Shown: positions 1 to 10,543 of the stretch, in pieces
Position numbering within the stretch: the first letter of the stretch is position 1
How the letters are laid out: the number at the start of each line of letters is the position of its first letter
Virus record (IMG/VR): IMGVR_UViG_2690316231_000017
Span: 1 to 10,543 of that record
Strand: one strand, 5' to 3'
Length of the DNA: 10,543 nucleotides
DNA from: a virus
Taxonomy: Duplodnaviria; Heunggongvirae; Uroviricota; Caudoviricetes
Program-made: the position numbers and the translations under genes
Notes under the pieces: generated by a model
Databases searched by the model: none
Told to the model about the DNA's origin: nothing
The model's input: the letters and a program-made list of their open reading frames with translations, nothing else

Positions 1-11
1 AGTATTAAGAC

Positions 12-31
12 TATCACTTATTTAAGTGATA
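12..31. repeat. 9-bp perfect inverted repeat (TATCACTTA-tt-TAAGTGATA) just downstream of the DUF262 ORF stop
   Basis: Read directly: plus-strand 12-20 tatcactta, 23-31 taagtgata are reverse complements. Could be a weak terminator stem or a protein-binding palindrome. Confidence 0.4.
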
Positions 32-60
32 TTGGTTGTCTGGAGATTCAGGGGGCCAGT

Positions 61-501
61 CTACTGAATGTTGTTTTGAAAGTATGGCTTAGGAGTTTCA
101 TTAACTAATTTAAAAAAAGGTCTGCCATCGTCATCCATACCAGATATATAATTATTATATATTGATTGAGCTACAGCCAACTCATTTATCAACTTAAATT
201 TATCACATAATGCTGATAACAATATAGTAAGAGTCGTAAGACGTTGTTGACCATCTACAATCATCAGCTCAGAGCTAGTTTCCTGCCCGACCAAAACGAG
301 AGCACCGATGAAATACTCATCATATTGATACTGCCCATCCTCCTGGTAATGAATATTGGAAACTATATCATGCCAAAGTTCACTTACTTGTTCCTTCCCC
401 CAAGAATATTCTCTTTGGAATCTAGGGACTATATATTTTTTATTTACAGATAACACGTTTGTTAAGGTTCGAGCATTTGCTTGCAGTTCCACTGAGGCCA
501 C
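61..501 (-). CDS. DUF262 / ParB-like nuclease-domain protein (GmrSD N-terminal-type), only 146 aa, possibly a truncated remnant
   Basis: ORF track protein contains the hallmark DGQQR motif (..MIVDGQQRLTTL..) preceded by the Y-IVP-FQREYSW segment typical of DUF262. First codon is GTG (plus-strand 499-501 = cac) with an in-frame TAG immediately upstream. After the TAG stop at 61-63, all three frames hit stops within the remaining 60 nt, so the ORF does not continue. Visibly AT-rich. Confidence 0.6.
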   Translation of the reverse strand: MASVELQANARTLTNVLSVNKKYIVPRFQREYSWGKEQVSELWHDIVSNIHYQEDGQYQYDEYFIGALVLVGQETSSELMIVDGQQRLTTLTILLSALCDKFKLINELAVAQSIYNNYISGMDDDGRPFFKLVNETPKPYFQNNIQ

Positions 502-630
502 CTACTTTAGTTGTTTGTATTACACAGTTTTATAGCATTGGAGTTTGAATGACAACCCGTTGCGCGCGCTCGTATCCCCGCCACGCCTGCCCGCTTTATG
601 TAGTGGTTTTCATGCAGGTGCATGACATAA

Positions 631-654
631 GCAAAAGCCCGCCAGTTCTGGCGG
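631..654 (-). terminator. Candidate intrinsic terminator for the minus-strand cargo operon
   Basis: GC-rich inverted repeat CCGCCAG/CTGGCGG (plus 639-645 and 648-654). On the minus strand it is followed by GCTTTTGCTT (T-tract). It lies about 150 nt downstream of the membrane-protein gene stop (802). Confidence 0.4.
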
Positions 655-663
655 ACCTCAGCA

Positions 664-683
664 AAAACGATCCTAAAACGATC
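664..683. repeat. Tandem direct repeat AAAACGATC x2 (period 11 bp), each carrying a GATC site
   Basis: Read directly: 664-672 aaaacgatc and 675-683 aaaacgatc. Sits in a GC-richer intergenic block flanked by imperfect direct repeats TTCATGCAG (609-617 and 691-699). Confidence 0.5.
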
Positions 684-801
684 ATGCGGATTCATGCAGC
701 ATAGACATGCAAAGCTTGTTAGAACGGTGATTCCCATGTTAAAGGAGGCTTACTCTTGTTGAGGTTAAACATCCACAGTAACTCCTGCCAATACGAACAC
801 T

Positions 802-1338
802 TTATTCATCATAGTGTTCTAATTTCGCTTTTGCTAAACGTCCATGTAAGTGATTAACAAAATGTAAATTACTCAAAATCAGGCTCATAACGCATTTTAA
901 TTGCATCCAGCTAATAAAGTAAATGAAGAAAATACCAATGTATTTAAACAAGTCTTTATTAGCTTGATAAACAGGTAATGCATAAAACACTGCCTTAACC
1001 AAAAAGAAAATTAGAATCCCAGCCATAACACAAGCAGATGTGATTATTGTATAAACTAATTTCTCTATTCTTGGTGAGTCATGCTCATTTTTTATATAAC
1101 TTACATCATCCTTAACAATACTATTCATTGCATTCGGATATAAAAAACCGACCCATAAACCGACAATAGTGAATATAGATGCTGAAATATTTATAAGCGC
1201 ACCTAAAATATCTTTTGCATCATTATAGGAAAAACTTTTGAACGAAAAATAGCTTATAACGCAGCACAAAACAACAGCAACAAAATTAATCGCCTGCTGT
1301 TTTGCAACTGTTATTATCAAACCTTCCGTTTCTGTCAT
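802..1338 (-). CDS. Small integral membrane protein (178 aa, about four predicted transmembrane helices); second gene of the cargo operon
   Basis: ATG at 1338 (plus 1336-1338 = cat), stop TAA at 802-804. Four long hydrophobic stretches (INFVAVVLCCVISYFSF; ILGALINISASIFTIVGLWVGFLY; LVYTIITSACVMAGILIFFLVKAVFYALPV; YIGIFFIYFISWMQLKCVMSLILSNL). GGAAGG Shine-Dalgarno about 6 nt upstream. Stop of the upstream gene and this ATG are separated by 1 nt (TGATATG). AT-rich. Confidence 0.75.
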   Translation of the reverse strand: MTETEGLIITVAKQQAINFVAVVLCCVISYFSFKSFSYNDAKDILGALINISASIFTIVGLWVGFLYPNAMNSIVKDDVSYIKNEHDSPRIEKLVYTIITSACVMAGILIFFLVKAVFYALPVYQANKDLFKYIGIFFIYFISWMQLKCVMSLILSNLHFVNHLHGRLAKAKLEHYDE

Positions 1339-1339
1339 A

Positions 1340-2539
1340 TCAACCTTCCGCTATCTTTTTTGTGGATGCAGCTTCAGATTCTTTAATGGATGCTTCCTCA
1401 GCATATTTTACTTCACTAATCAAATCATCACGAATTTTGTTTATTTCATCCAGTAAAAAACGCGCTGAATAATGCTCAAACCCATCCGAATCTTGAAGAG
1501 GAAGTTTAGTCCTGGCTACATAGCTACTGAGCCAAACCGGATTAGCACGATCAGCCAGTAAAAAACCCACATCCCATTCAGACTCTTCACCTCTCATTGA
1601 GAAGAGATTTCGAAGCTCATCCGATGATGGTGCACCGTCAATTTTAACTTCAATTTTACGAGGCTGCTCCAAAACAGGAGGTGCCCCAATAAGCTTATTA
1701 CGCTTTTCTTCACCCACCAGAGATGCTAAAGCTACACTTGTTAGCTTCAACAATGGTTGCCTTGTGTCATTTTGGTTTATTACCGTTGTATCCTTTATCA
1801 ATGTGTGTGTAATTTTATGCCTTAACCTTTCAAAGTTTTCCTCAGCGGCTTTAAGTTTTGTTTCTTCCAATACAAACTTGAAGATACAGTTTATCTCATT
1901 TTTGCCATCTTTATATTGAAACTTAGTATTGTAGACATCCACACAACGACCAGGGGTCTTAGCTGATTCAAATGTACGCTTAGATTTCGTTCTTTTACCT
2001 AACTTACTATTATTATTTACATGCTGAATGAAGTATTGTGCGAAGAGATAAGTATCAGCGAAAGAATGGGGGAATCTGATTGATGCTATTTTATTCAACT
2101 CAGGAATAATCCAGTAATAGCAGGGTTCACCCCAAATTATTTTATCCTCACCATGTTCTCTTCCCGCCCTAATGGTTCCTTTACTATCACCACTTACTTT
2201 AGAACCGACCTTAATACCATGTATTCCGTTACCGTTCCCCACTTCACGGTATAAAACAATTACTGCATCTTTAGTCTGGCTGTCCCTCACAAGGCCTCGA
2301 CTGTAAACTCGTGTTCGCAGAGGTTGTTCTTCTTTATTCCATGGGAGAGTCTGCTCAAAATTTTTATCCTTGAGCCACCCTTCTAAATCGTCCAAAACCC
2401 CCATAAGATCGCCGAATTTATAATCAAGCTCTTCGGGTTTATTCTTTAAACGATAAAACCCACAAGCAGTAATATCAAAGAAGGTGATTGAGCCGTTGTC
2501 CACTAAAACTCCTTTTTGCCAAAGCAACACACGATACAT
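1340..2539 (-). CDS. Hypothetical 399-aa soluble protein, first gene of the cargo operon; no family assignable by eye
   Basis: Long uninterrupted minus-strand ORF, ATG at 2539 (plus 2537-2539 = cat), TGA at 1340-1342. No Walker A, no RT YxDD, no obvious nuclease motif. The only motif-like element is a GDSKG (GxSxG-like) pentapeptide, which is weak. AT-rich composition contrasts with the adjacent phage backbone. Confidence 0.75.
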   Translation of the reverse strand: MYRVLLWQKGVLVDNGSITFFDITACGFYRLKNKPEELDYKFGDLMGVLDDLEGWLKDKNFEQTLPWNKEEQPLRTRVYSRGLVRDSQTKDAVIVLYREVGNGNGIHGIKVGSKVSGDSKGTIRAGREHGEDKIIWGEPCYYWIIPELNKIASIRFPHSFADTYLFAQYFIQHVNNNSKLGKRTKSKRTFESAKTPGRCVDVYNTKFQYKDGKNEINCIFKFVLEETKLKAAEENFERLRHKITHTLIKDTTVINQNDTRQPLLKLTSVALASLVGEEKRNKLIGAPPVLEQPRKIEVKIDGAPSSDELRNLFSMRGEESEWDVGFLLADRANPVWLSSYVARTKLPLQDSDGFEHYSARFLLDEINKIRDDLISEVKYAEEASIKESEAASTKKIAEG

Positions 2540-2704
2540 TTTTCACGTATACCATCAGAATCGTCCCTAAACTTCAAGTTACTTATGATAATCAAGAAAG
2601 CTGTCGAATGTTGTTGCATAGGCCAAAGTTTCAGGGGAACAAGGCATTCTTAAATCACTTTTCACTACCTGTTTCTAACGCCTCACGCGGCTCGTTGTTC
2701 AACC

Positions 2705-2739
2705 TTGCGGACGATAAAAACCAGTTTTATCGTCCGCAA
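2705..2739. repeat. Perfect palindrome: 15-bp arms with a 5-nt spacer (TTGCGGACGATAAAA-accag-TTTTATCGTCCGCAA)
   Basis: Read directly: 2705-2719 is the exact reverse complement of 2725-2739. It lies 6 nt downstream of the DinI-like stop (2746) and at the boundary where composition switches to AT-rich cargo. No U-tract follows on either strand, so it is not a canonical intrinsic terminator. Confidence 0.7.
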
Positions 2740-2745
2740 CGTTCG

Positions 2746-2979
2746 CTAGTGTAACCAGCTGTCGTCCTCCCAGACCTTCTGCATAATTTTCATCACTTGT
2801 TTTCTTTCTTCGTCCAGTTGCAGTCCGGTCAGTTCCACACCGTTAGAGCTACCTTTGCGGATACGAATTACCGTTTTGGGATACAGGGGGCGCAGATTGC
2901 GGTAAAGCTCGGATTCAAGGGCGTCCAGTGTAGACTGGCTAATCTTCTGCTCTTTATCGATCATTATTTCAATGCGCAT
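2746..2979 (-). CDS. DinI-family protein (77 aa), SOS-regulated
   Basis: Protein MRIEIMIDKEQKISQSTLDALESELYRNLRPLYPK...KIMQKVWEDDSWLH aligns by eye with E. coli DinI (MRIEV..IDALAGELSRR...WESADDW) as recalled from memory. Start refined from the ORF-track 3051 to the ATG at 2979, which has a GAGGTG Shine-Dalgarno 4 nt upstream that overlaps the TGA of the preceding gene. Confidence 0.8.
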   Translation of the reverse strand: MRIEIMIDKEQKISQSTLDALESELYRNLRPLYPKTVIRIRKGSSNGVELTGLQLDEERKQVMKIMQKVWEDDSWLH

Positions 2980-2989
2980 AAAAGTCACC

Positions 2990-3178
2990 TCAGCTGATGA
3001 CATCCATTGAGCGGTTGTATTCATGGGTTCTGATTTTTGCCATGAGTTCATCTGTCAGTTCAGAAACCCACTGCAGGGCCAGCCCCTTCTCTTCATCACT
3101 ACATTCACTAGCCGCTACAAGCTTAAGAAAAAAATCAATGCGCTGGAGCTTCAAAGACTCCAAAAAATAGTCCTGCAT
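2990..3178 (-). CDS. Small SOS-operon protein (62 aa); possible Tum-like antirepressor or unknown function
   Basis: Start refined to the ATG at 3178 (plus 3176-3178 = cat) with a strong AGGAGG Shine-Dalgarno 4 nt upstream; stop TGA at 2990-2992. First gene downstream of the LexA box. No recognisable motif. The position is analogous to the tum region of phage 186, but the size does not match my recollection of Tum (about 146 aa). Confidence 0.55.
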   Translation of the reverse strand: MQDYFLESLKLQRIDFFLKLVAASECSDEEKGLALQWVSELTDELMAKIRTHEYNRSMDVIS

Positions 3179-3220
3179 CTTTCCTCCTATGACACCAAAG
3201 CAATACTGTATACATAACAA

Positions 3221-3245
3221 CTGTTTATATTTACAGTATATAATA
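3221..3245 (-). promoter_or_regulatory. LexA (SOS) box CTGT-N8-ACAG with an overlapping candidate -10; SOS-repressed promoter of the small-protein/DinI operon
   Basis: Plus-strand 3221-3236 = ctgtttatatttacag (CTGT, 8 AT-rich nt, ACAG; palindromic). On the minus strand TATACT (3240..3235) and TATTAT (3245..3240) are -10-like hexamers abutting the box. The box lies 43-58 nt upstream of the ATG at 3178. No convincing -35 found. Confidence 0.65.
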
Positions 3246-3251
3246 ATCTTA

Positions 3252-3282
3252 CTGATGTAAAACGTTTTTTTACGTTCATCAG
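3252..3282 (-). terminator. Candidate hairpin/terminator between the gene A stop and the SOS promoter
   Basis: Inverted repeat ctgatg...catcag (3252-3257 and 3277-3282) enclosing a palindromic AAAACGTTTT-type core. On the minus strand it is followed by AT-rich sequence. Position is consistent with termination of the early operon after A. Confidence 0.3.
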
Positions 3283-3330
3283 CCTGATATGCCTGGTATT
3301 ATTAAGAGCACGAATTGTTAACCCGCGTAA

Positions 3331-5745
3331 TTAATACAGATCCCGCCACTTATCATCTTCCTGCAAACGCTGGTTCCGATAGAAGATACGCAGGCCTGCT
3401 CCTGACGGAATACTGCCACCGCGAAGGAGTAAATCGACCTCTTTCTCGCTGCCATCAAATCCTCTGGACTTCAGTTCATAGACGAGCTGCTGTCGCTGAT
3501 GATCTGTAATTCGCTGTTTGTAGTCTCTACGCCGTTTCGGTTTCACCAGGCGTAACCTTGCAGCCAGTTCCCGGCGCTCTTTTTTGTTCATACTGTGCAG
3601 GTAATCGTGCAATTCCTTGTCATCCATGCGGGTGATATCCGTTCTGGTATCCCCATCAGCTGATTTGTCTTTCCCTTGTTGGTACAAATTTTCAGCAAGG
3701 GGACAGTTATTGCCACGAGTCCAAGGGGCGCAAGCGCCCTGGTCGGCTGCCGCCTCCTGAACGTCAACGGCCTTACGAACTATTTTCCACTTCACTGCAT
3801 GAGTGCAGATCTTGCCCTCTGCAATGGGTGACCAGATGCCATAAATACGAATACCGTGATCACCATAGGCGGTCGGCTCTTCGTTGATTTCATAAGCGGT
3901 TCTGATCAAGTGATATTTGCGGGGAACCAGTACGCCGCCCTGCTTCATGATGTAGGTGGCAAAACAACCAGCATCAGCAGCAGCCAGGATGGCATCAAGG
4001 CGCGGGTTATCCAGTACCGGCGCACCTGCTTTTTTGTCACCCTGTTGCCTTGCCGCCTGACCAGCCAGCAATCGCAGTTCACGGTAAGCCTGACGCCCCG
4101 GAATGCCAAAGAAGCGGAATTGCTGAACACGATGCAGAGACGCCCAGGCATTAACGTATTCAGCGTTATCACGCAGGGATTTACCCGTTTCCTTACTGAT
4201 CTCGCCAGCCAGACCACGCCCGTCAATATTCTTACTGATATATTTCGCAATGTAGCTTGTCGGCGTTCCTTTGCGCGGGTTTATCAGCTCAGACTTAAAG
4301 CGTGGCCCCGTGTTATTGCCCAGCTCCTCGCGGTCTTCACGGATGGCAAACTTACGCAACAATGCAGTAATGGCGCGGCGGTCTTTTTTGCGCATGAAAC
4401 ACAACAGGTGCCAGTGAACTGTGCCGTCATGATGCGGCTCAGCCACCCGCACGCCATACCAGCGCAACCCGGCTTTGTGCATAGCCTTACGAAATGCAGC
4501 AAACATGCCGACCAGATAATCGCTGCTTTGTCTTACTGTCGCGTTGGTCCAGGTCGGGTTTGGCCTACCGTTATTTAGCGTGGAATGGAAACGTGACGGA
4601 CAGGTGATGGTGTAGAAAACGGCGCAGTCACCACGCATTTCCGCGATAAGCTCCAGGCCTTTAACACAGGCCATCATCTCGTTGCGGCGATGCGCCGGGT
4701 TGCTGCTGCTGGCGTTTACCACATCCTCCATGTTCAGCGTGTCGCCGTCTTCGTTCACCAGTTCATGAGAACGGAAAAACTCCAGCGACTTACGGCGCTG
4801 CTCACGTTTATGCATCACGGCTTCATAGCTGACATAGGGAGATGCTTTTTTGCTGACCAGGCAGACAGCACGCAACTGCTCTTCCCGCCATTCGCAACGC
4901 ATCTTCCATAATTTCCGATACCACCAGTCGGCGCACAGCATACGCGCCAGCGACCCCGGAATGAGTTCATAGGGCACGGGTTTACGGCGGTTTCTTTTCC
5001 GGCGGAGTTGCTCAAACGCAGGCGGTATGACATCCAGTCGCAGGGTTTCTGCTGCCACCTTTTCCCATGTCTTGCGGATTTCTTCTGGCTTAACGTCATC
5101 GGTGGCATACAAATCACCACAAGCGGCATCAAGGCACATGCTCATATGCGCAGCGACAAGGGTAGACAGGCGCTTCACCTGATCCTGACTCATTTCAGGC
5201 AGGATAAGCAGGCCATCCAGCCCTTCATGGCTTGCCATAAAGCGAAAAGAAGTGGATAGCTGACAGTCGCGGACATGCTCCAGTCGTTCCAGACATGGCT
5301 TAATCGTCTCACGCAAATAGCGGGAATAAGCCTTTGGCCTGCCCAGGCTGCTGAAATATTCAATACGTTGCATCAGCGGCTTGCTGATATGGGAAGGCTG
5401 GGCATTGACGTCAGCCAGAATGACCATGTCTGGATTAAAACGCTGCTGCTCATGCGCCAGCTTTGCCCGGCTAATGAGCTTATCCTGCTCCATTTCGCGC
5501 TGGACAGGATCACGGGATTCATTAAAGAAATAACGCTCCCAGACCTGATCACTCAGTGCCTCGCGGCGCAGTTGTTCCTGCTCGTTATCGGCAGCGTACA
5601 GAGTGATCAGGTTTGAAAGTGCAGAAACCGGCGCAACTTCCGCCGGGTCCTGATAAGGGTTAATAGCCTTTTTCGGGCTGTTCCATGAGAATGCTGCGGC
5701 GACCTCGTTAAAGCCGCTGCAGTTGTTCATATCATCATGGCTCAT
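3331..5745 (-). CDS. A: Phage replication initiation protein A (P2 gpA-like HUH rolling-circle endonuclease), 804 aa
   Basis: 804-aa minus-strand ORF with an HUH motif (HWHLL, residues 444-448) and a paired-tyrosine active-site motif SYIAKYISK (Y498 and Y502, codons at about 4252-4254 and 4240-4242), the arrangement characteristic of the P2 A-protein family. Start ATG overlaps the dam stop (ATGA). Stop TAA at 3331-3333. Confidence 0.9.
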
Positions 5746-6599
5746 GCACGCACTCCGTATACGGCTGAACTATCCACGCCACGCGAAGGATCAAATCCCA
5801 CCCAGCAGCGCGGCCCGGAAACAGCGATGATTTCAGTTGCAGATTTACTCTCACCAGCTGCTACGCCGATGCTGCGTTTTGCCTTGATGTAGTGGTGAGT
5901 AAAATTGCGATACAGCGAACGGATCAGGGATGTGTCACTGTTAGAAACAATGACCGGATGTCCTTCTGATGACCGATGTTCAAGCACAGATGCCAGGCGA
6001 TACTGGTCATCTTCAGTGAAGCCATCAGTGTGATAGCCGGAAAACGTACCGTCATAAGGCGGATCGCAATACACAACATCCCCCGCGTGCAACATCGCCA
6101 GCGTTTCATCGAAGCTGGCGCAGATAAACGTTGCCCGCTGGGCTTTCTCTGCAAATGCGCGAATTTCTTTTTCAGGGAAATACGGATTTTTATAATTACC
6201 GTAGGGAATGTTGAAATGCCCGCTCTTGTTATAGCGACATAACCCACGGTAACCATGTCGATTGAGATACAGGAAATATACCGCTTTCATGAAATTAGTA
6301 ATTTCAGTTGAGTAGTTAAACTCCTGCCTTATGTTGTAATAAGCCACCTCCCTGTTTGCTTCCTCAAATAAAACTCTGGCGCGAGATATAAATAATTCAC
6401 AATCAGCGGCAACCTTTTTATAGAGGTTGATTAAATCAGGATTAATATCCGCAACCAGATAGCTGGGGTAATCCGTTTCCATCATCACTGCACAGGAACC
6501 CGCGAAAGGTTCAACCAGTCGCAGGCCAGCAGGAAGGTGTTTTTTCAGTTCTGGCATAATGGCGGTTTTATTTCCCGCCCATTTCAGGATGGTGCTCAT
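5742..6599 (-). CDS. dam: Dam-family DNA N6-adenine methyltransferase (GATC-specific type predicted)
   Basis: Protein shows the conserved Dam blocks as recalled for E. coli Dam: [41 protein letters not shown], and the catalytic DPPY motif ([10 protein letters not shown]). Start ATG overlaps the TraR-like stop (ATGA); stop overlaps the A start. Confidence 0.9.
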
Positions 6600-6823
6600 A
6601 CAGCACCTCCGTTGTAATGTTTACCTTTCAGCTCTGCGATTTCCTGACAGGTAATGCAAAGCTGCACTCCCGGAATGGCGCGGCGGCGTGCTGGCGGAAT
6701 TGGCGCTTCACACTCTATGCAAAGCACGCGAGACACGCCCGGTGTTTTGGCACGGGCAGCACGGATGTGGCGCTGGCGTTCTTCTTCAACGCGCTGCTGT
6801 ACGAGATCCATTGCATCAGCCAT
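6596..6823 (-). CDS. TraR/DksA-family C4 zinc-finger protein (75 aa)
   Basis: LCIECEAPIPPARRRAIPGVQLCITCQ...KHY matches the C-x2-C...C-x2-C finger and flanking residues of F-plasmid TraR as recalled (CEACGNPIPEARRKIFPGVTLCVECQ). ATG at 6823 overlaps the upstream stop (ATGA). Confidence 0.8.
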   Translation of the reverse strand: MADAMDLVQQRVEEERQRHIRAARAKTPGVSRVLCIECEAPIPPARRRAIPGVQLCITCQEIAELKGKHYNGGAV

Positions 6824-7056
6824 CAGTGGATCTCCTGCGCTTCGTTCTGGATTGCTTCAGCAGTCACACGCAGCAGTTCTGCCGCTTCGACGTGGTTTAG
6901 TTGGCGGGATGTGATATGACACGCCAGGCTATCAAGGCGAGCTGCCATTGCTTCAGCCCTTGCCCGGCGTTCTTCCAGACGAGCCTCTGTCAGTAAAATA
7001 TTAAGCCCTGCATCATCCGGTCCGGTTTTAGTCGTGAGGGTTTCAATATTACGCAT
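6823..7056 (-). CDS. Hypothetical small protein (77 aa) of the early lytic operon
   Basis: The ORF-track start at 7062 is a TTG; the first ATG is at 7056, with an AGGAGA Shine-Dalgarno about 8 nt upstream. Backbone-like GC content. Stop overlaps the TraR-like start. Confidence 0.55.
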   Translation of the reverse strand: MRNIETLTTKTGPDDAGLNILLTEARLEERRARAEAMAARLDSLACHITSRQLNHVEAAELLRVTAEAIQNEAQEIH

Positions 7057-7123
7057 AATCAATTCTCCTGAATTTAGATAAAGGGATGCCCGGCGGGTTT
7101 ACGCCATTAATTTCATTAGTTGG

Positions 7124-7465
7124 TTAATTCGGCATGGTTAGCCGTCTGGGAAATAAGCTCACCACTGCACGAAAATGATTCATTGCTTTAATCAACTCCC
7201 GCTTTTCGTCAGTGGTCAGCTCATTAATGCTGATGCTATGACGTTCAGCTGGAATTTTTGCCATAAAGAATATGGCAGCCAGTGCCCTTTTATTTTGTTC
7301 ATTATTGATATCCCATGGATCACGCATATCTTTAATAAACCGCTCAAGCTCTGACTCAATATTTAGGCCAAAAACTTTCGCCCTTAACTCCGCAATGTGA
7401 TTAAGTCCATTCAGGCGTTCACCGGGGCTTAATGGAACAGTCGCCGCAGTGCCTTCAATAGCCAT
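7124..7465 (-). CDS. Hypothetical protein (113 aa) of the early lytic operon
   Basis: ATG at 7465 with a GGGGGA Shine-Dalgarno-like element 5 nt upstream. Overlaps the 3' end of the upstream small ORF by 37 nt in another frame. No recognisable motif. Confidence 0.5.
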   Translation of the reverse strand: MAIEGTAATVPLSPGERLNGLNHIAELRAKVFGLNIESELERFIKDMRDPWDINNEQNKRALAAIFFMAKIPAERHSISINELTTDEKRELIKAMNHFRAVVSLFPRRLTMPN

Positions 7466-7629
7466 TTGTTCCCCCGTTTTTTCGTAGATAGTTCTGCCAG
7501 CAATTCATCTTGTGAACGGCACGGATGCCAGCGTTTACCATCCTCCCCCATGATCCAGCCGTGACCGTAATGCATTGCCGGGCTTTGTTTAACCAGCAGC
7601 GATGCAAATGATGGTTCTTTCGTCAGCAT
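7429..7629 (-). CDS. Hypothetical small protein (66 aa); positionally analogous to the post-cII small genes of phage 186
   Basis: Start refined from the ORF-track 7659 to the ATG at 7629, which has a GAGGTG Shine-Dalgarno overlapping the cII-like stop codon (TGA at 7637-7639). Identity not established. Confidence 0.45.
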   Translation of the reverse strand: MLTKEPSFASLLVKQSPAMHYGHGWIMGEDGKRWHPCRSQDELLAELSTKKRGNKWLLKALRRLFH

Positions 7630-7636
7630 AAGCACC

Positions 7637-8146
7637 TCACAGCAAACCAAATGAAGCACCGAGGCCAGTCACGGTATCAACTGCACTCGCCATCGCAGGA
7701 TTAGCCTGTAAACGGGCCTGCAATGAAACAGCCGCCAGCGCCATCAGTCGTGTTACAGAGTTAATGCTACTGATAGCATCACGACGACCGGCACAGGTTT
7801 TTACATCGCCAGACACCGCACCTGCAGCAACACGCCCGATCTCTGCGGTTGCACTCATGACGTAATGTGGCAGTTTCTCTTTTGCCACCTCATTAATCGG
7901 TACACATGGCAGACAATGAATCTGTGCCAGAAAACCATCTACCAGCGTTGAATCTTCAGTCAGATCGGTAAGCAGCCAGATTTCTGGTGCGGTTAATAAA
8001 TGAGGCTGAGCTGGGTTCAGCTTGTTCCGCAGAATCTGCACATTCATGCCTGCACGTTCTGCCAGTTGCACCAGATTGTGGCGCAGTGCAAATGCACGAC
8101 AGGCTTCATCAAAATGTGGATGTTTGGAAACTTGGTAATCAAACAT
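7637..8146 (-). CDS. cII: Phage 186 CII-like transcriptional regulator (169 aa)
   Basis: The ORF-track start is a TTG; the ATG two codons in (8146) gives a 169-aa protein, the length I recall for 186 CII. It sits immediately downstream of the excisionase-like gene, as in 186 (apl-cII). AGAGG Shine-Dalgarno about 8 nt upstream. Assignment rests on position, size and recollection, not on an alignment. Confidence 0.6.
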
Positions 8147-8178
8147 GGTCAATGCCTCTGATGTATTTCAGAATCGAA

Positions 8179-8400
8179 CTAATTAAGGTTTAGATTGCAT
8201 TCTGAAAGCGCATCAACGGTCATTGCTGCTATGTTGATCATCACTTTTTCGCGTTTTTTATCTTTGCGCAGACGGTGACGGATAAGGCGTCCATCAGCCA
8301 ACATGTCATTGATGGTATCGATGGATAGCCCTGTCAGCTCGCTATAGCGTTCAATAGTCACATGAGGCGTGGTAAGAGTGATTGAAATGTTAGGTCTCAT
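8179..8400 (-). CDS. Apl/Cox-like excisionase / early-promoter regulator (73 aa)
   Basis: First gene of the leftward operon, diverging from the repressor gene. Small basic protein with a helix-turn-helix-like segment ([21 protein letters not shown]). ATG at 8400 with a GAGGA Shine-Dalgarno upstream. Confidence 0.55.
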
Positions 8401-8472
8401 GATGCAACATTCCTCGTTTAATGATGATTAATCAGGACGAATACGGATCGTTTGTATTTTGTGAACACCATA

Positions 8473-8501
8473 AACATACGATCGCACAGTGAAATCGTCA
8501 A
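8473..8501 (-). promoter_or_regulatory. Candidate lytic (pR-like) sigma70 promoter for the apl/cII operon
   Basis: Minus-strand -35 TTGACG (plus 8501..8496), 17-nt spacer, -10 TATGTT (plus 8478..8473); predicted start about 65 nt upstream of the apl-like ATG. The switch region also holds direct repeats ATACGGATCG (8441-8450) and ATACGATCG (8476-8484) and inverted GTGAAC (8461-8466) / GTTCAC (8509-8514) motifs as candidate operators. Confidence 0.4.
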
Positions 8502-8525
8502 GATAAAAGTTCACTTGGAGTGACC

Positions 8526-9095
8526 ATGAATTTGGAGAAAGGCGGACGAGGCGCCATAGAGCGCATGGTAGAAGCTTATGGATTCAAGACTCGACAGGCG
8601 TTGTGCGATCATTTAGGAATCTCTAAAAGTACACTCGCCACACGCTACATGCGTGACTCATTCCCAGCAGAATGGGTAATCCAGTGCGCCCTTGAAACAG
8701 GCACCTCGCTTAATTGGCTCACAACCGGGCATGGTTCAAAGCAAACTTCAGGTAATACAAATACTATGGAAGTTGCTAAATATGTATTATCTGATGGGGC
8801 CTTGTGTGAAGACGGTTTTTATATTTTCGATAGAGAATTTCTACCGTCGGCATTCAAGAATCTTTTTGTAATCACAGATAATAATTCTGAATTTATTTGT
8901 GATAAGGAATTTGATGATATACGTGATGGTAAATGGGTAATAAGTATTGATGGCGAAATAACGATCCGTGACATTACTCGTTTACCCGGTGGAAGAATCT
9001 TCGTCGAGGGTGGAAACAGAGCCTTCGAATGTAAGATAGAAGACATTGAAATAATTGGTAAAATTATAAGTTTAACAGTCAAGTATGTTAAATAG
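8526..9095 (+). CDS. cI: Phage 186 CI-like immunity repressor (189 aa)
   Basis: The ORF-track start at 8520 is a GTG; the ATG at 8526 has a GGAG Shine-Dalgarno 5 nt upstream. N-terminal DNA-binding region (EAYGFKTRQALCDHLGISKSTLATRYMRD...CALETGTSLNWLTTGHG) plus a C-terminal domain. Divergent from the apl-like gene and upstream of int, as in 186. Stop TAG at 9093-9095. Confidence 0.7.
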   Translation: MNLEKGGRGAIERMVEAYGFKTRQALCDHLGISKSTLATRYMRDSFPAEWVIQCALETGTSLNWLTTGHGSKQTSGNTNTMEVAKYVLSDGALCEDGFYIFDREFLPSAFKNLFVITDNNSEFICDKEFDDIRDGKWVISIDGEITIRDITRLPGGRIFVEGGNRAFECKIEDIEIIGKIISLTVKYVK

Positions 9096-9110
9096 TACCG
9101 GGAGGAAATT

Positions 9111-9302
9111 ATGCTTGGTAAGGTATTTTTTGTGGTTTTGTCATGTTCTTTGTTATTAAACCCACTAGCTACCTATGCTAGAAATTATCCCTGCTCAGGG
9201 AAAAAGGGAGGTGTTTCTCACTGTACCTCTGATGGCAAATTCGTTTGCAATGATGGAACTATTAGTAAATCCAAAAAAATCTGTACTAAAAACTCACGAT
9301 AA
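9111..9302 (+). CDS. Small secreted Cys-containing, Lys-rich peptide (63 aa precursor) between cI and int; candidate moron
   Basis: Strong GGAGG Shine-Dalgarno (9101-9105) 5 nt before the ATG at 9111. N-terminal signal-peptide-like sequence ([23 protein letters not shown]) with no lipobox, then an approximately 40-aa mature part with four Cys and many Lys/Gly/Ser. AT-rich. Confidence 0.55.
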
Positions 9303-9437
9303 CTTTTGCTTTTATATCTGCGCCTAAAATAAAAATGAGCCACAGGTTAACCGCAAAAGTTACATGATCACATAGCAAAAAGAATAGCCTACTTCATTAT
9401 GGCTTCAGTGAGATGTATGGTCGCAGGATTTCATACA

Positions 9438-9466
9438 TTGACACTGGTTATACATACAGTAAAAAT
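9438..9466 (+). promoter_or_regulatory. Candidate sigma70 promoter immediately upstream of int
   Basis: Perfect -35 TTGACA at 9438-9443, 17-nt spacer, -10-like AAAAAT at 9461-9466, followed by a GGAGG Shine-Dalgarno (9477-9481) and the int ATG at 9491. Confidence 0.3.
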
Positions 9467-9490
9467 GCTCTCTATTGGAGGGCATTTTTT

Positions 9491-10543
9491 ATGGCTGTAC
9501 GAAAACTCACCACAGGAAAATGGCTTTGCGAATGTTACCCCGCCGGACGTAGTGGGCGTCGTGTGCGTAAACAATTCGCCACCAAAGGCGAAGCACTGGC
9601 TTTTGAGCGTCACACGATGGAAGAAACCGAAGCAAAGCCCTGGCTAGGTGAATCAGTGGATCGTCGAACACTGAAAGACGTGGTTGAGCTATGGTTCAAA
9701 CTACATGGTAAATCACTGACTGCTGGGCAGCATGTCTATGACAAATTGCTGCTGATGGTTGACGCTCTGGGCAATCCCCCTGCAACTGATCTAACCTCTA
9801 AAATGTTTGCCCACTATCGAGATAAACGCCTGACAGGTGAGATCTACTTCAGCGAGAAATGGAAGAAAGGAGCAAGCCCGGTCACCATTAATCTGGAGCA
9901 AAGCTATCTAAGTAGTGTTTTTAGCGAACTATCCCGCCTGGGCGAATGGTCGTATCCGAACCCACTGGAGAACATGCGAAAATTCACCATCGCAGAAAAA
10001 GAGATGGCATGGCTTACCCATGAGCAGATTGTTGAATTACTGGCTGATTGCAAACGTCAGGACCCAATTCTGGCACTGGTAGTTAAGATATGCTTAAGCA
10101 CAGGCGCACGCTGGCGAGAAGCCGTAAATCTTACTCGTTCACAGGTGACCAAATACCGAATTACCTTTGTAAGAACGAAGGGGAAGAAAAACAGAAGCAT
10201 CCCTATCAGTAAAGAGCTTTACGAAGAGATCATGGCGCTTGATGGGTTCAATTTCTTCACAGACTGCTATTTTCAATTTTTATCCGTGATGGAAAAAACG
10301 TCTATCGTGCTCCCTCGCGGTCAACTCACACACGTTCTGCGCCATACGTTTGCGGCGCACTTCATGATGTCGGGTGGAAACATTCTGGCCTTACAAAAAA
10401 TTCTCGGACACCACGATATAAAAATGACTATGCGTTACGCACATCTGGCACCGGATCATCTGGAAACGGCGCTCCGTTTCAATCCTCTGGCAACGCTGCC
10501 AAGTGGCGACAAAGTGGCGGCAGCGGTTGGCATTACCCCGTAA
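9491..10543 (+). CDS. int: P2-type tyrosine integrase (site-specific recombinase), 350 aa
   Basis: Start refined from the ORF-track 9413 to the ATG at 9491 (MAVRKLTTGKW..), based on resemblance to the P2 Int N-terminus as recalled and on the upstream Shine-Dalgarno. Conserved catalytic blocks LSTGARWREA, HVLRHTFAAHF and MRYAHL (catalytic Tyr). Stop TAA at 10541-10543, so the gene is complete; attP would lie beyond the window. Confidence 0.9.
   Translation: MAVRKLTTGKWLCECYPAGRSGRRVRKQFATKGEALAFERHTMEETEAKPWLGESVDRRTLKDVVELWFKLHGKSLTAGQHVYDKLLLMVDALGNPPATDLTSKMFAHYRDKRLTGEIYFSEKWKKGASPVTINLEQSYLSSVFSELSRLGEWSYPNPLENMRKFTIAEKEMAWLTHEQIVELLADCKRQDPILALVVKICLSTGARWREAVNLTRSQVTKYRITFVRTKGKKNRSIPISKELYEEIMALDGFNFFTDCYFQFLSVMEKTSIVLPRGQLTHVLRHTFAAHFMMSGGNILALQKILGHHDIKMTMRYAHLAPDHLETALRFNPLATLPSGDKVAAAVGITP

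Follow-up and report, generated by a model that had tools for sequence, protein, structure and literature searches.

The analyzed window is the stretch of 10,543 nucleotides (nt) that forms positions 1 to 10,543 of the tailed-phage record IMGVR_UViG_2690316231_000017 (Caudoviricetes), and its subject is a short open reading frame (ORF) of 63 codons at positions 9111..9302 of the plus strand, between the genes of a CI repressor and a P2-family integrase. This ORF, called here the ydcA-like gene, was read from the sequence together with a Shine-Dalgarno sequence GGGAGG (9100..9105, +) placed 5 nt ahead of its ATG at 9111. The TAG stop codon of cI occupies 9093-9095, and the ATG starts 16 nt later. 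The GC content is 0.33–0.38 over the gene as against 0.45–0.54 in the flanks. A tract of low GC content (0.31–0.39) extends over approximately 8775–9450, from the C-terminal half of CI across the ydcA-like gene to the spacer behind it; the C-terminal half of CI and the ydcA-like gene may have been acquired jointly from a source of lower GC content.

Codons 1–23 (9111..9179, +) encode a predicted Sec-type signal peptide, recognized by the hydrophobicity profile and by a pattern seen throughout the family described below. It carries Lys as its fourth residue, followed by a hydrophobic core at residues 5–16 (Kyte-Doolittle means over nine residues of 1.9–2.7), and cleavage is predicted between TYA and RN, after A23, with R24 as the first mature residue. 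The residue located four positions ahead of the conserved Pro is Ala in 64 of 82 family members, and the residue six positions ahead is A, S, T, V, or G in 70 of them; this family-wide combination of Ala at −1 and a small residue at −3 corresponds to the pattern of signal peptidase I. A fifth Cys, C12, is located inside the signal peptide and is absent in most homologues. Lipid attachment through VLSC (residues 9–12) was considered and rejected, as C12 occupies a mid-core position, has further hydrophobic residues after it, and is not conserved; the name ‘Lipoprotein’ given to the Yersinia nurmii member was also set aside, its sequence being without a lipobox.

The remaining part of the ORF (9180..9302, +) encodes the mature domain of 40 aa and the stop codon. 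The mature part contains four Cys, seven Lys, two Arg, and two Asp residues, with a net charge of +7 and an isoelectric point of 9.7, and the pLDDT of the AlphaFold2 model is about 90 at residues 31–50.

On sequence grounds, the gene is a member of the YdcA family. Its product scores 114.6 bits (E = 1.3e-33) with the NCBIfam model NF007463 (PRK10040.1-2), whose curated cut-off is 93, and matches PHROG 6000 over the full profile (E = 3.1e-34); the Pfam family PF27300 is precomputed on the identical protein P0001. In RefSeq, the identical protein is WP_001513672.1, “YdcA family protein”. The Pfam-A search, performed with a release older than PF27300, gave a single sub-threshold chance match, GULLO2-like_3rd (E = 0.076). 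Since the protein is above the cut-off of NF007463 and below that of NF007462, it represents, judged by sequence, a subfamily paralogous to the chromosomal ydcA. Escherichia coli K-12 YdcA (b1419), which is described by the two PRK10040 models and by PF27300, has 58% identity with the window protein; both contain a signal peptide and one PCSGxKGG[VI]SHC...F[VI]CNDG[ST]xSxSKKxC domain with four invariant Cys. The K-12 protein was described as having a signal sequence and was predicted to be periplasmic (PMC11340327). The K-12 gene is chromosomal and located between cybB and trg, whereas the window gene is prophage cargo behind cI. No functional study of the YdcA family, of PF27300, or of a small periplasmic YdcA was found in the searchable literature, and kinship with DUF3761 (motif CxDGTxSxS...GxCSxHGGV) was not detectable with the tools used. 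One 379-aa ‘member’ of a YdcA cluster, P0078, was set aside as an unrelated membrane protein, apparently an artefact of the clustering.

The alignment of 36 members contains 14 invariant columns: P27, C28, S29, K32, G33, G34, C38, F44, C46, G49, S52, S54, K55, and C58. Signal peptides diverge freely among the homologues, each ending in small-x-Ala, while the mature core hardly varies among alpha-, beta-, and gamma-proteobacteria. The core is positively charged in 81 of the 82 members, with a mean net charge of about +4. Clustered at 90% and 50% identity, the family gives 1,573 and 449 clusters, respectively. The whole cI-ydcA-int stretch (at least 80% of the query covered) was found in 591 of the 5,426 complete E. 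coli genomes. BL21 derivatives are among them, the BL21 copy being located in a region with 96% identity to the window. Over a core of 32 codons, the gene differs from its copy in the related locus L009 by 10 synonymous and one non-synonymous substitutions (omega ~0.02) and from that in L008 by 20 synonymous substitutions (of 20.8 synonymous sites, i.e., at saturation) and two non-synonymous ones. By these counts, purifying selection on the ydcA-like gene is strong.

A short ORF within a low-GC tract could be a chance or decaying reading frame of an AT-rich spacer, without function. This explanation is refuted by conservation and is given almost no credence here: the passed cut-off of NF007463 together with the excess of synonymous changes in diverged copies (omega ~0.02) excludes a chance ORF, and the number of clusters and the intact state of the gene in about 590 complete E. 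coli genomes point in the same direction. By its sequence, the window gene is thus a real and strongly conserved one, encoding a predicted exported, disulfide-rich, cationic mini-protein of 40 aa.

An earlier sequence-only reading of the same DNA had described a small secreted peptide with a strong ribosome-binding site, a signal-peptide-like N-terminus, a mature part of about 40 residues with four cysteines, and an AT-rich composition. Each of these features was found in the terms given above, namely GGGAGG at 5-nt spacing, a hydrophobic core with a conserved A-x-A-type site (predicted by rules), 40 aa with all four Cys invariant in the family, and a GC content of 0.33–0.38, though the tract also takes in the 3′ half of cI. 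A signal peptide is predicted, and conservation in related prophages is evident from the comparison of sequences. The homology search that it proposed leads to NF007463, PHROG 6000, and PF27300; the reading had missed that the exact protein (WP_001513672.1) and its family are already catalogued. As a whole, it was partly supported.

The interval between cI and int is variable among related phages. In P2, the gap between C and int is 115 bp long and has no gene, just as the sequence-only reading had stated, and in 186 cI and int abut. According to the blastn boundaries, the cI-ydcA module of the window ends at about 9279–9294 and the int module starts at about 9402–9433. Relatives whose int modules have approximately 96–98% nucleotide identity (blastn) carry different cargo between cI and int: a PD-Lambda-1 protein in L005 (804-2477), an uncharacterised 349-aa protein in L006, which is Klebsiella phage 4LV2017 (813-1862), an uncharacterised 323-aa protein in L007 (1502-2473), and a KAP-family NTPase after the ydcA-like gene in L008 (3411-4742) and L009 (3255-4586). 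The KAP NTPase of the last two loci matches PDC-S20 of PADLOC with E = 2e-171. No PADLOC match was obtained for the 349-aa and 323-aa proteins, which are candidate new defence genes. The spacer of the window (9303..9430, +), delimited by the same blastn boundaries, is without an equivalent in the related loci that were compared; where relatives have both genes, the KAP NTPase gene stands at the corresponding position.

Comparison of this interval across related prophages had been proposed in the sequence-only reading, where the gene was taken for a probable moron. That label is fair: the slot is variable among the int-related prophages and empty in P2 and 186, so the gene is present in some members and absent in close relatives, and its composition deviates, with the reservation about the 3′ half of cI made above. 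On this sequence evidence, the ydcA-like gene is a genuine accessory gene. The PD-Lambda-1 and PDC-S20 cargo is encoded on the same strand and in the same slot as the window gene, and in L008 and L009 the PDC-S20 gene is adjacent to the ydcA-like gene itself; however, these are large cytoplasmic proteins recognized by PADLOC, whereas the window product is a 4-kDa protein with predicted export.

Judged by sequence comparison, a YdcA-like gene is found behind cI in three diverged lineages of Peduoviridae. The first includes the window; the RefSeq context of the identical gene is a 186-like prophage with apl, cII, fil, DUF5347, DUF2732, TraR/DksA, Dam, and replication endonuclease genes. The second is represented by the Haemophilus phages HP2 and S2. 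In HP2, an intact YdcA-family ORF of 60 codons is located on the minus strand of NC_003315.1 at 2486-2668 (L001 3444-3626); the product of the HP2/S2 ORF begins with MKKLISTVLIASSFFMVANMADA, set apart from the remaining 37 residues. The HP2 record has no annotated feature for this ORF, and the tblastn table for S2 lists no feature under the match. The HP2/S2 ORF and the window gene are homologous, and both stand right after homologous CI genes, the CI proteins being 32% identical. The ATG of the HP2/S2 ORF overlaps the cI stop codon, whereas the window gene starts 16 nt past cI, and this arrangement suggests that the HP2/S2 ORF is translationally coupled to cI. The order in HP2 is cI, ydcA-like ORF, orf1(S), and then int. 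The orf1(S) gene (L001 3636-4400) encodes a signal peptide and a tRNA_anti-like oligonucleotide/oligosaccharide-binding (OB) fold (Pfam, E = 2.8e-13) and is, as predicted from its sequence, a second exported protein on the lysogenic operon.

A scan of IMG/VR with the window gene returned near-identical E. coli copies only and was repeated with the HP2 homologue as a query. As a result, 16 HP2-like contigs were found that retain cI-ydcA, with varying cargo before int. A third P2-like group of seven contigs has CI 38–39% and integrase 48% identical to those of the window, and the ydcA-like gene is located just ahead of int, sometimes with about 1 kb of further cargo between cI and ydcA. In a locus of this group, L213, a DUF4917 protein (4312-5298; Pfam, E = 2.9e-49) is encoded just past int and may be more cargo between int and the attachment site.

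Among loci taken as one genome per species, cI followed by ydcA was also observed in Yersinia alsatica, Y. aldovae, Y. nurmii, and Buttiauxella, and in the three Yersinia loci a P2-like int is located directly downstream of ydcA. In Moraxella, Acinetobacter, and other phages, the ydcA-like gene occupies another place classic for morons: it is found amid tail genes, in one case with a HicB-like gene next to it. Two mobilisable Moraxellaceae plasmids of 3.9 and 5.4 kb contain a YdcA-like gene among five genes (L254 728-904; L255 2932-3105), in one of them between a lipoprotein gene and an uncharacterised gene of 319 aa. Across 78 species, the gene has heterogeneous neighbours; the context met most often is that of a CI repressor upstream (five loci) and an integrase downstream (six loci), and no constant or recurrent partner gene was found. 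Judging from these gene orders, the YdcA-like protein seems to work without a fixed partner.

As for the structure, the only relative in the PDB is Dis2 (Lpg0823), chain AN of 7MUC/7MUD, which belongs to the Dot/Icm type IVB secretion system of Legionella. The match has E = 3.2e-5 in phmmer, 9.9e-6 with the family profile, and 2.2e-4 with the mature part alone; both halves of Dis2 are matched, with the Cys and Gly-Gly motifs aligned. In Foldseek, Dis2 is also the top match of the predicted structure (probability 0.98), and a Foldseek search of the viral structures in BFVD gave nothing below E = 1. Matches in the PDB to Pin-II proteinase inhibitors, the low-density lipoprotein (LDL) receptor, and lectins (E = 0.07–6) were judged to be noise of cysteine spacing. 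Dis2 is periplasmic, consists of two lobes alike in sequence and structure, with five disulfides, and is located near the outer membrane; its authors did not find structural relatives in the PDB and treated it as species-specific (PMC8486379). According to another study, Dis2 contacts DotK, DotC, and DotD, is dispensable for assembly of the outer-membrane core complex, alters the translocation efficiency of some effectors, and is regarded as restricted to Legionellales (PMC12716638).

The YdcA domain corresponds to one lobe of Dis2, as judged from the sequence alignment and the structural model. Dis2 and the window protein share C-S-K-x-G-G-[VI]-x-[HY]-C and [FL]-V-C-N-[ND]-G, and this homology speaks for a periplasmic fold of the window protein, stabilised by disulfides. 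The two proteins differ in that Dis2 has two lobes with five disulfides within a 13-fold outer-membrane cap, whereas the window protein would be a single free domain.

In longer family members, the YdcA domain always stands right after the signal peptide. It occurs in two or three tandem copies (P0080-P0082) and in fusions with Endonuclease_NS (L110, P0189, P0194, P0212, P0254), with a staphylococcal nuclease domain (SNase, P0109), with a PLD-type nuclease domain (PLDc_2, P0185), and with a type VI VasL-like domain (P0116). In addition, a Citrobacter plasmid (L256 3926-4327) encodes a 133-aa YdcA-domain protein with a C-terminal extension directly after tssF-tssG-tssJ-tssE. The beta-proteobacterial two-domain forms (L140 4001-4345; L125, L135, L136, L147, L160-L168) have an added second module, basic and Cys-rich, CxCRSGxxCTGPRGGxYCxxDSGxKSYxRR, which scores 21.3 bits with Pfam PBCV_basic_adap against a cut-off of 20.4 (E = 3e-4).

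The kinship with Dis2, a component of a type IV secretion system (T4SS), the VasL fusion, and the copy within a type VI secretion system (T6SS) cluster are what one would expect of an accessory subunit of a trans-envelope machine for conjugation or type IV/VI secretion, and the UniRef name of the identical protein is ‘Conjugal transfer protein’. This role is nonetheless considered very unlikely for the window gene. The window protein is single-domain, the window and its prophage are without T4SS or other secretion-system genes, most family members stand alone in unrelated contexts, and even the Dot/Icm outer-membrane core complex can be assembled without Dis2 (PMC12716638). No support for the UniRef label was found: the plasmid matches that were examined proved to be small mobilisable plasmids and one prophage-like contig.

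The same contexts bear on the suggestion of the sequence-only reading that the peptide could be bacteriocin-like or a toxin. An antimicrobial peptide secreted against competitors would fit a small, cationic, Cys-rich product with an export signal, and the Pin-II proteinase inhibitor matches (E = 0.07–1) are at chance level. The only neighbours of the gene in the window are cI and int, and no adjoining gene for immunity, maturation or processing, or dedicated export was found in the prophage, chromosome, and plasmid contexts examined. Moreover, in a Gram-negative cell a Sec signal leads to the periplasm and not into the medium, larger periplasmic or secreted proteins as well as Dis2 are built with this domain, and E. 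coli has a stable chromosomal gene of the family, ydcA. An antimicrobial function is therefore regarded as highly improbable, and this part of the earlier reading is not supported.

The surroundings of the ydcA-like gene were analyzed for signals of transcription. The upstream cI gene (8526..9095, +) is 186-like; its product matches Phage_CI_repr (E = 2.8e-33) and Phage_CI_C (E = 2.7e-27) and is named ‘phage repressor protein CI’ in RefSeq. Its start was set at GTG 8520 by the mechanical ORF call and at ATG 8526 in RefSeq. This is the first gene of the lysogenic operon and stands immediately upstream of the ydcA-like gene. No plus-strand terminator was predicted from cI through the end of the ydcA-like ORF, and no plus-strand promoter-like or terminator-like site flanks the ORF itself; a terminator-like hairpin is located about 160 nt downstream. 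The annotated lysogenic operon of 186 runs from pL through cI, int, and orf69 to a terminator. Since no terminator is predicted between cI and the ydcA-like gene, and by analogy to the operons of 186 and HP2 (pL), the gene probably rides on the cI transcript in the lysogen; the placement on the cI-to-int stretch given in the sequence-only reading agrees with this. On the opposite strand, at 9091..9063 (−), a sigma-70-like site TTAACA-17-TATAAT (11 of 12 matches) falls within the 3′-terminal part of cI and is directed antisense to it; the AT-richness of the tract may have produced this site incidentally.

Downstream, the gene of the P2-family tyrosine integrase (9491..10543, +; Int_N, E = 7.2e-32; Phage_integrase, E = 7.5e-22) stands at the end of the prophage, followed in the RefSeq context by rcdA and ybjJ. 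Ahead of it, the consensus scan found a sigma-70 promoter-like site TTGACA-17-AAAAAT (9438..9466, +; 10 of 12 matches), which is weak evidence because promoter-like sites are no more numerous in this region than in shuffled sequences. A stem-loop with a 13-bp stem set between an A-run and a U-run (9461..9489, +) has a folding energy of −21.1 kcal/mol (z = −6.6; none of 200 shuffles was equally stable). It overlaps the promoter-like site, encloses the GGAGG of int, ends 1 nt ahead of the int ATG, and is conserved with the int module in L005-L009. By its sequence, this stem-loop resembles a terminator, a clamp on the translation of int, or both, and it may reduce the read-through that reaches int from cI-ydcA. 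Nothing like it is present in 186, since cI and int abut there.

The identity of the gene and the predicted export of its product are strongly supported. The favoured explanation as a whole is that the gene is a moron encoding a YdcA mini-protein that acts as an autonomous periplasmic binding module with an envelope-level benefit; with the sequence evidence at hand, it is given an even chance of being right. The gene would be co-transcribed with cI from pL in the lysogen, and the precursor would be exported by Sec, cut after Ala23, and oxidised in the periplasm to two disulfides. The 4.3-kDa product would then be a free binding module for a widely conserved, probably polyanionic ligand on the envelope side, for which DNA in transit, peptidoglycan, and the inner face of the outer membrane are candidates. 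The near-invariance of the mature sequence over three proteobacterial classes argues for a near-universal ligand, and the cationic core argues for a polyanion. The heterogeneous neighbours and the fusions point to an autonomous module. The lysogen would benefit through interference with foreign DNA entry, i.e., superinfection exclusion, or through envelope robustness. The slot with anti-phage cargo and the repeated retention beside cI make an envelope-level benefit for the lysogen the most likely one; superinfection exclusion specifically is possible, though doubtful, on the present sequence comparisons.

Temperate phages have several envelope-acting exclusion or conversion proteins, such as Sp and Imm of T4, Llp of T5, Cor of phi80 and N15, gp15 of HK97, and SieA of P22. 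The window protein is similar to this class in being small, predicted to be envelope-targeted, and apparently positioned for expression in the lysogen. No sequence or fold similarity between these proteins and the window protein was found, and the likeness is one of position and topology.

The main rival explanation is a fitness-type conversion gene without an anti-phage role, i.e., a factor of envelope-stress or acid tolerance, as is possible for the chromosomal YdcA. It would agree with the 58% identity of the two proteins. Deletion of ydcA in E. coli W was reported to cause sensitivity to 300 mM 3-hydroxypropionate, and up-regulation of the gene at pH 5 under YdcI was reported as well, but the phenotype comes from a single study, which itself calls the role unclear (PMC7642389). 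A stress-tolerance role leaves unexplained both the retention beside cI in three Peduoviridae lineages and the fusions to nucleases and secretion-machine proteins, and it is considered unlikely.

Several observations weigh against the favoured reading of a periplasmic binding module with an envelope-level benefit. The window 63-aa protein matches no model of PADLOC-DB 2.0; it is the position in the slot that suggests a defence role, and some genes of the family, K-12 ydcA for example, are ordinary chromosomal ones. The hairpin and the promoter-like site before int mean that the operon is organised unlike that of 186, and co-transcription with cI is an inferred step. The call of signal-peptide cleavage rests on rules and on conservation within the family and not on a trained predictor. 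The Endonuclease_NS fusions are mutually homologous, so that the independent events are few, about three nuclease folds and one VasL. The pointers to the ligand also diverge: the nuclease fusions favour DNA, whereas peptidoglycan, the inner face of the outer membrane, or a protein anchor would fit better with the T4SS and T6SS contexts.

A broader possibility is that the YdcA domain is an unrecognised extracytoplasmic module that binds DNA or the site where DNA crosses the envelope, reused by secreted nucleases, by T4SS and T6SS, and by temperate phages, and that its free prophage copy is a new periplasmic exclusion or anti-DNA-entry factor conserved from E. coli 186-like prophages to HP2. This proposal is speculative and rather improbable.

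A catalogued gene in a common E. coli prophage is in itself an ordinary finding. Three observations appear not to have been described previously, according to the searchable literature: that the gene stands repeatedly behind cI, also as the unannotated HP2/S2 ORF, that YdcA is akin to Dis2, and that the domain occurs in fusions with nuclease and T6SS domains. Together they make up a testable hypothesis and not a discovery. Dis2, called species-specific in the papers devoted to it, has relatives across Proteobacteria, and the nuclease and T6SS fusions give a concrete and cheap hypothesis on the ligand of the domain. The retention behind cI in three P2-like lineages and the anti-phage slot make the gene a reasonable candidate for an envelope-level exclusion factor, a class poorly covered in current defence catalogues. 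About one-ninth of complete E. coli genomes, BL21 laboratory strains included, would make this peptide together with the repressor, and any envelope phenotype that it confers would thus be widespread.

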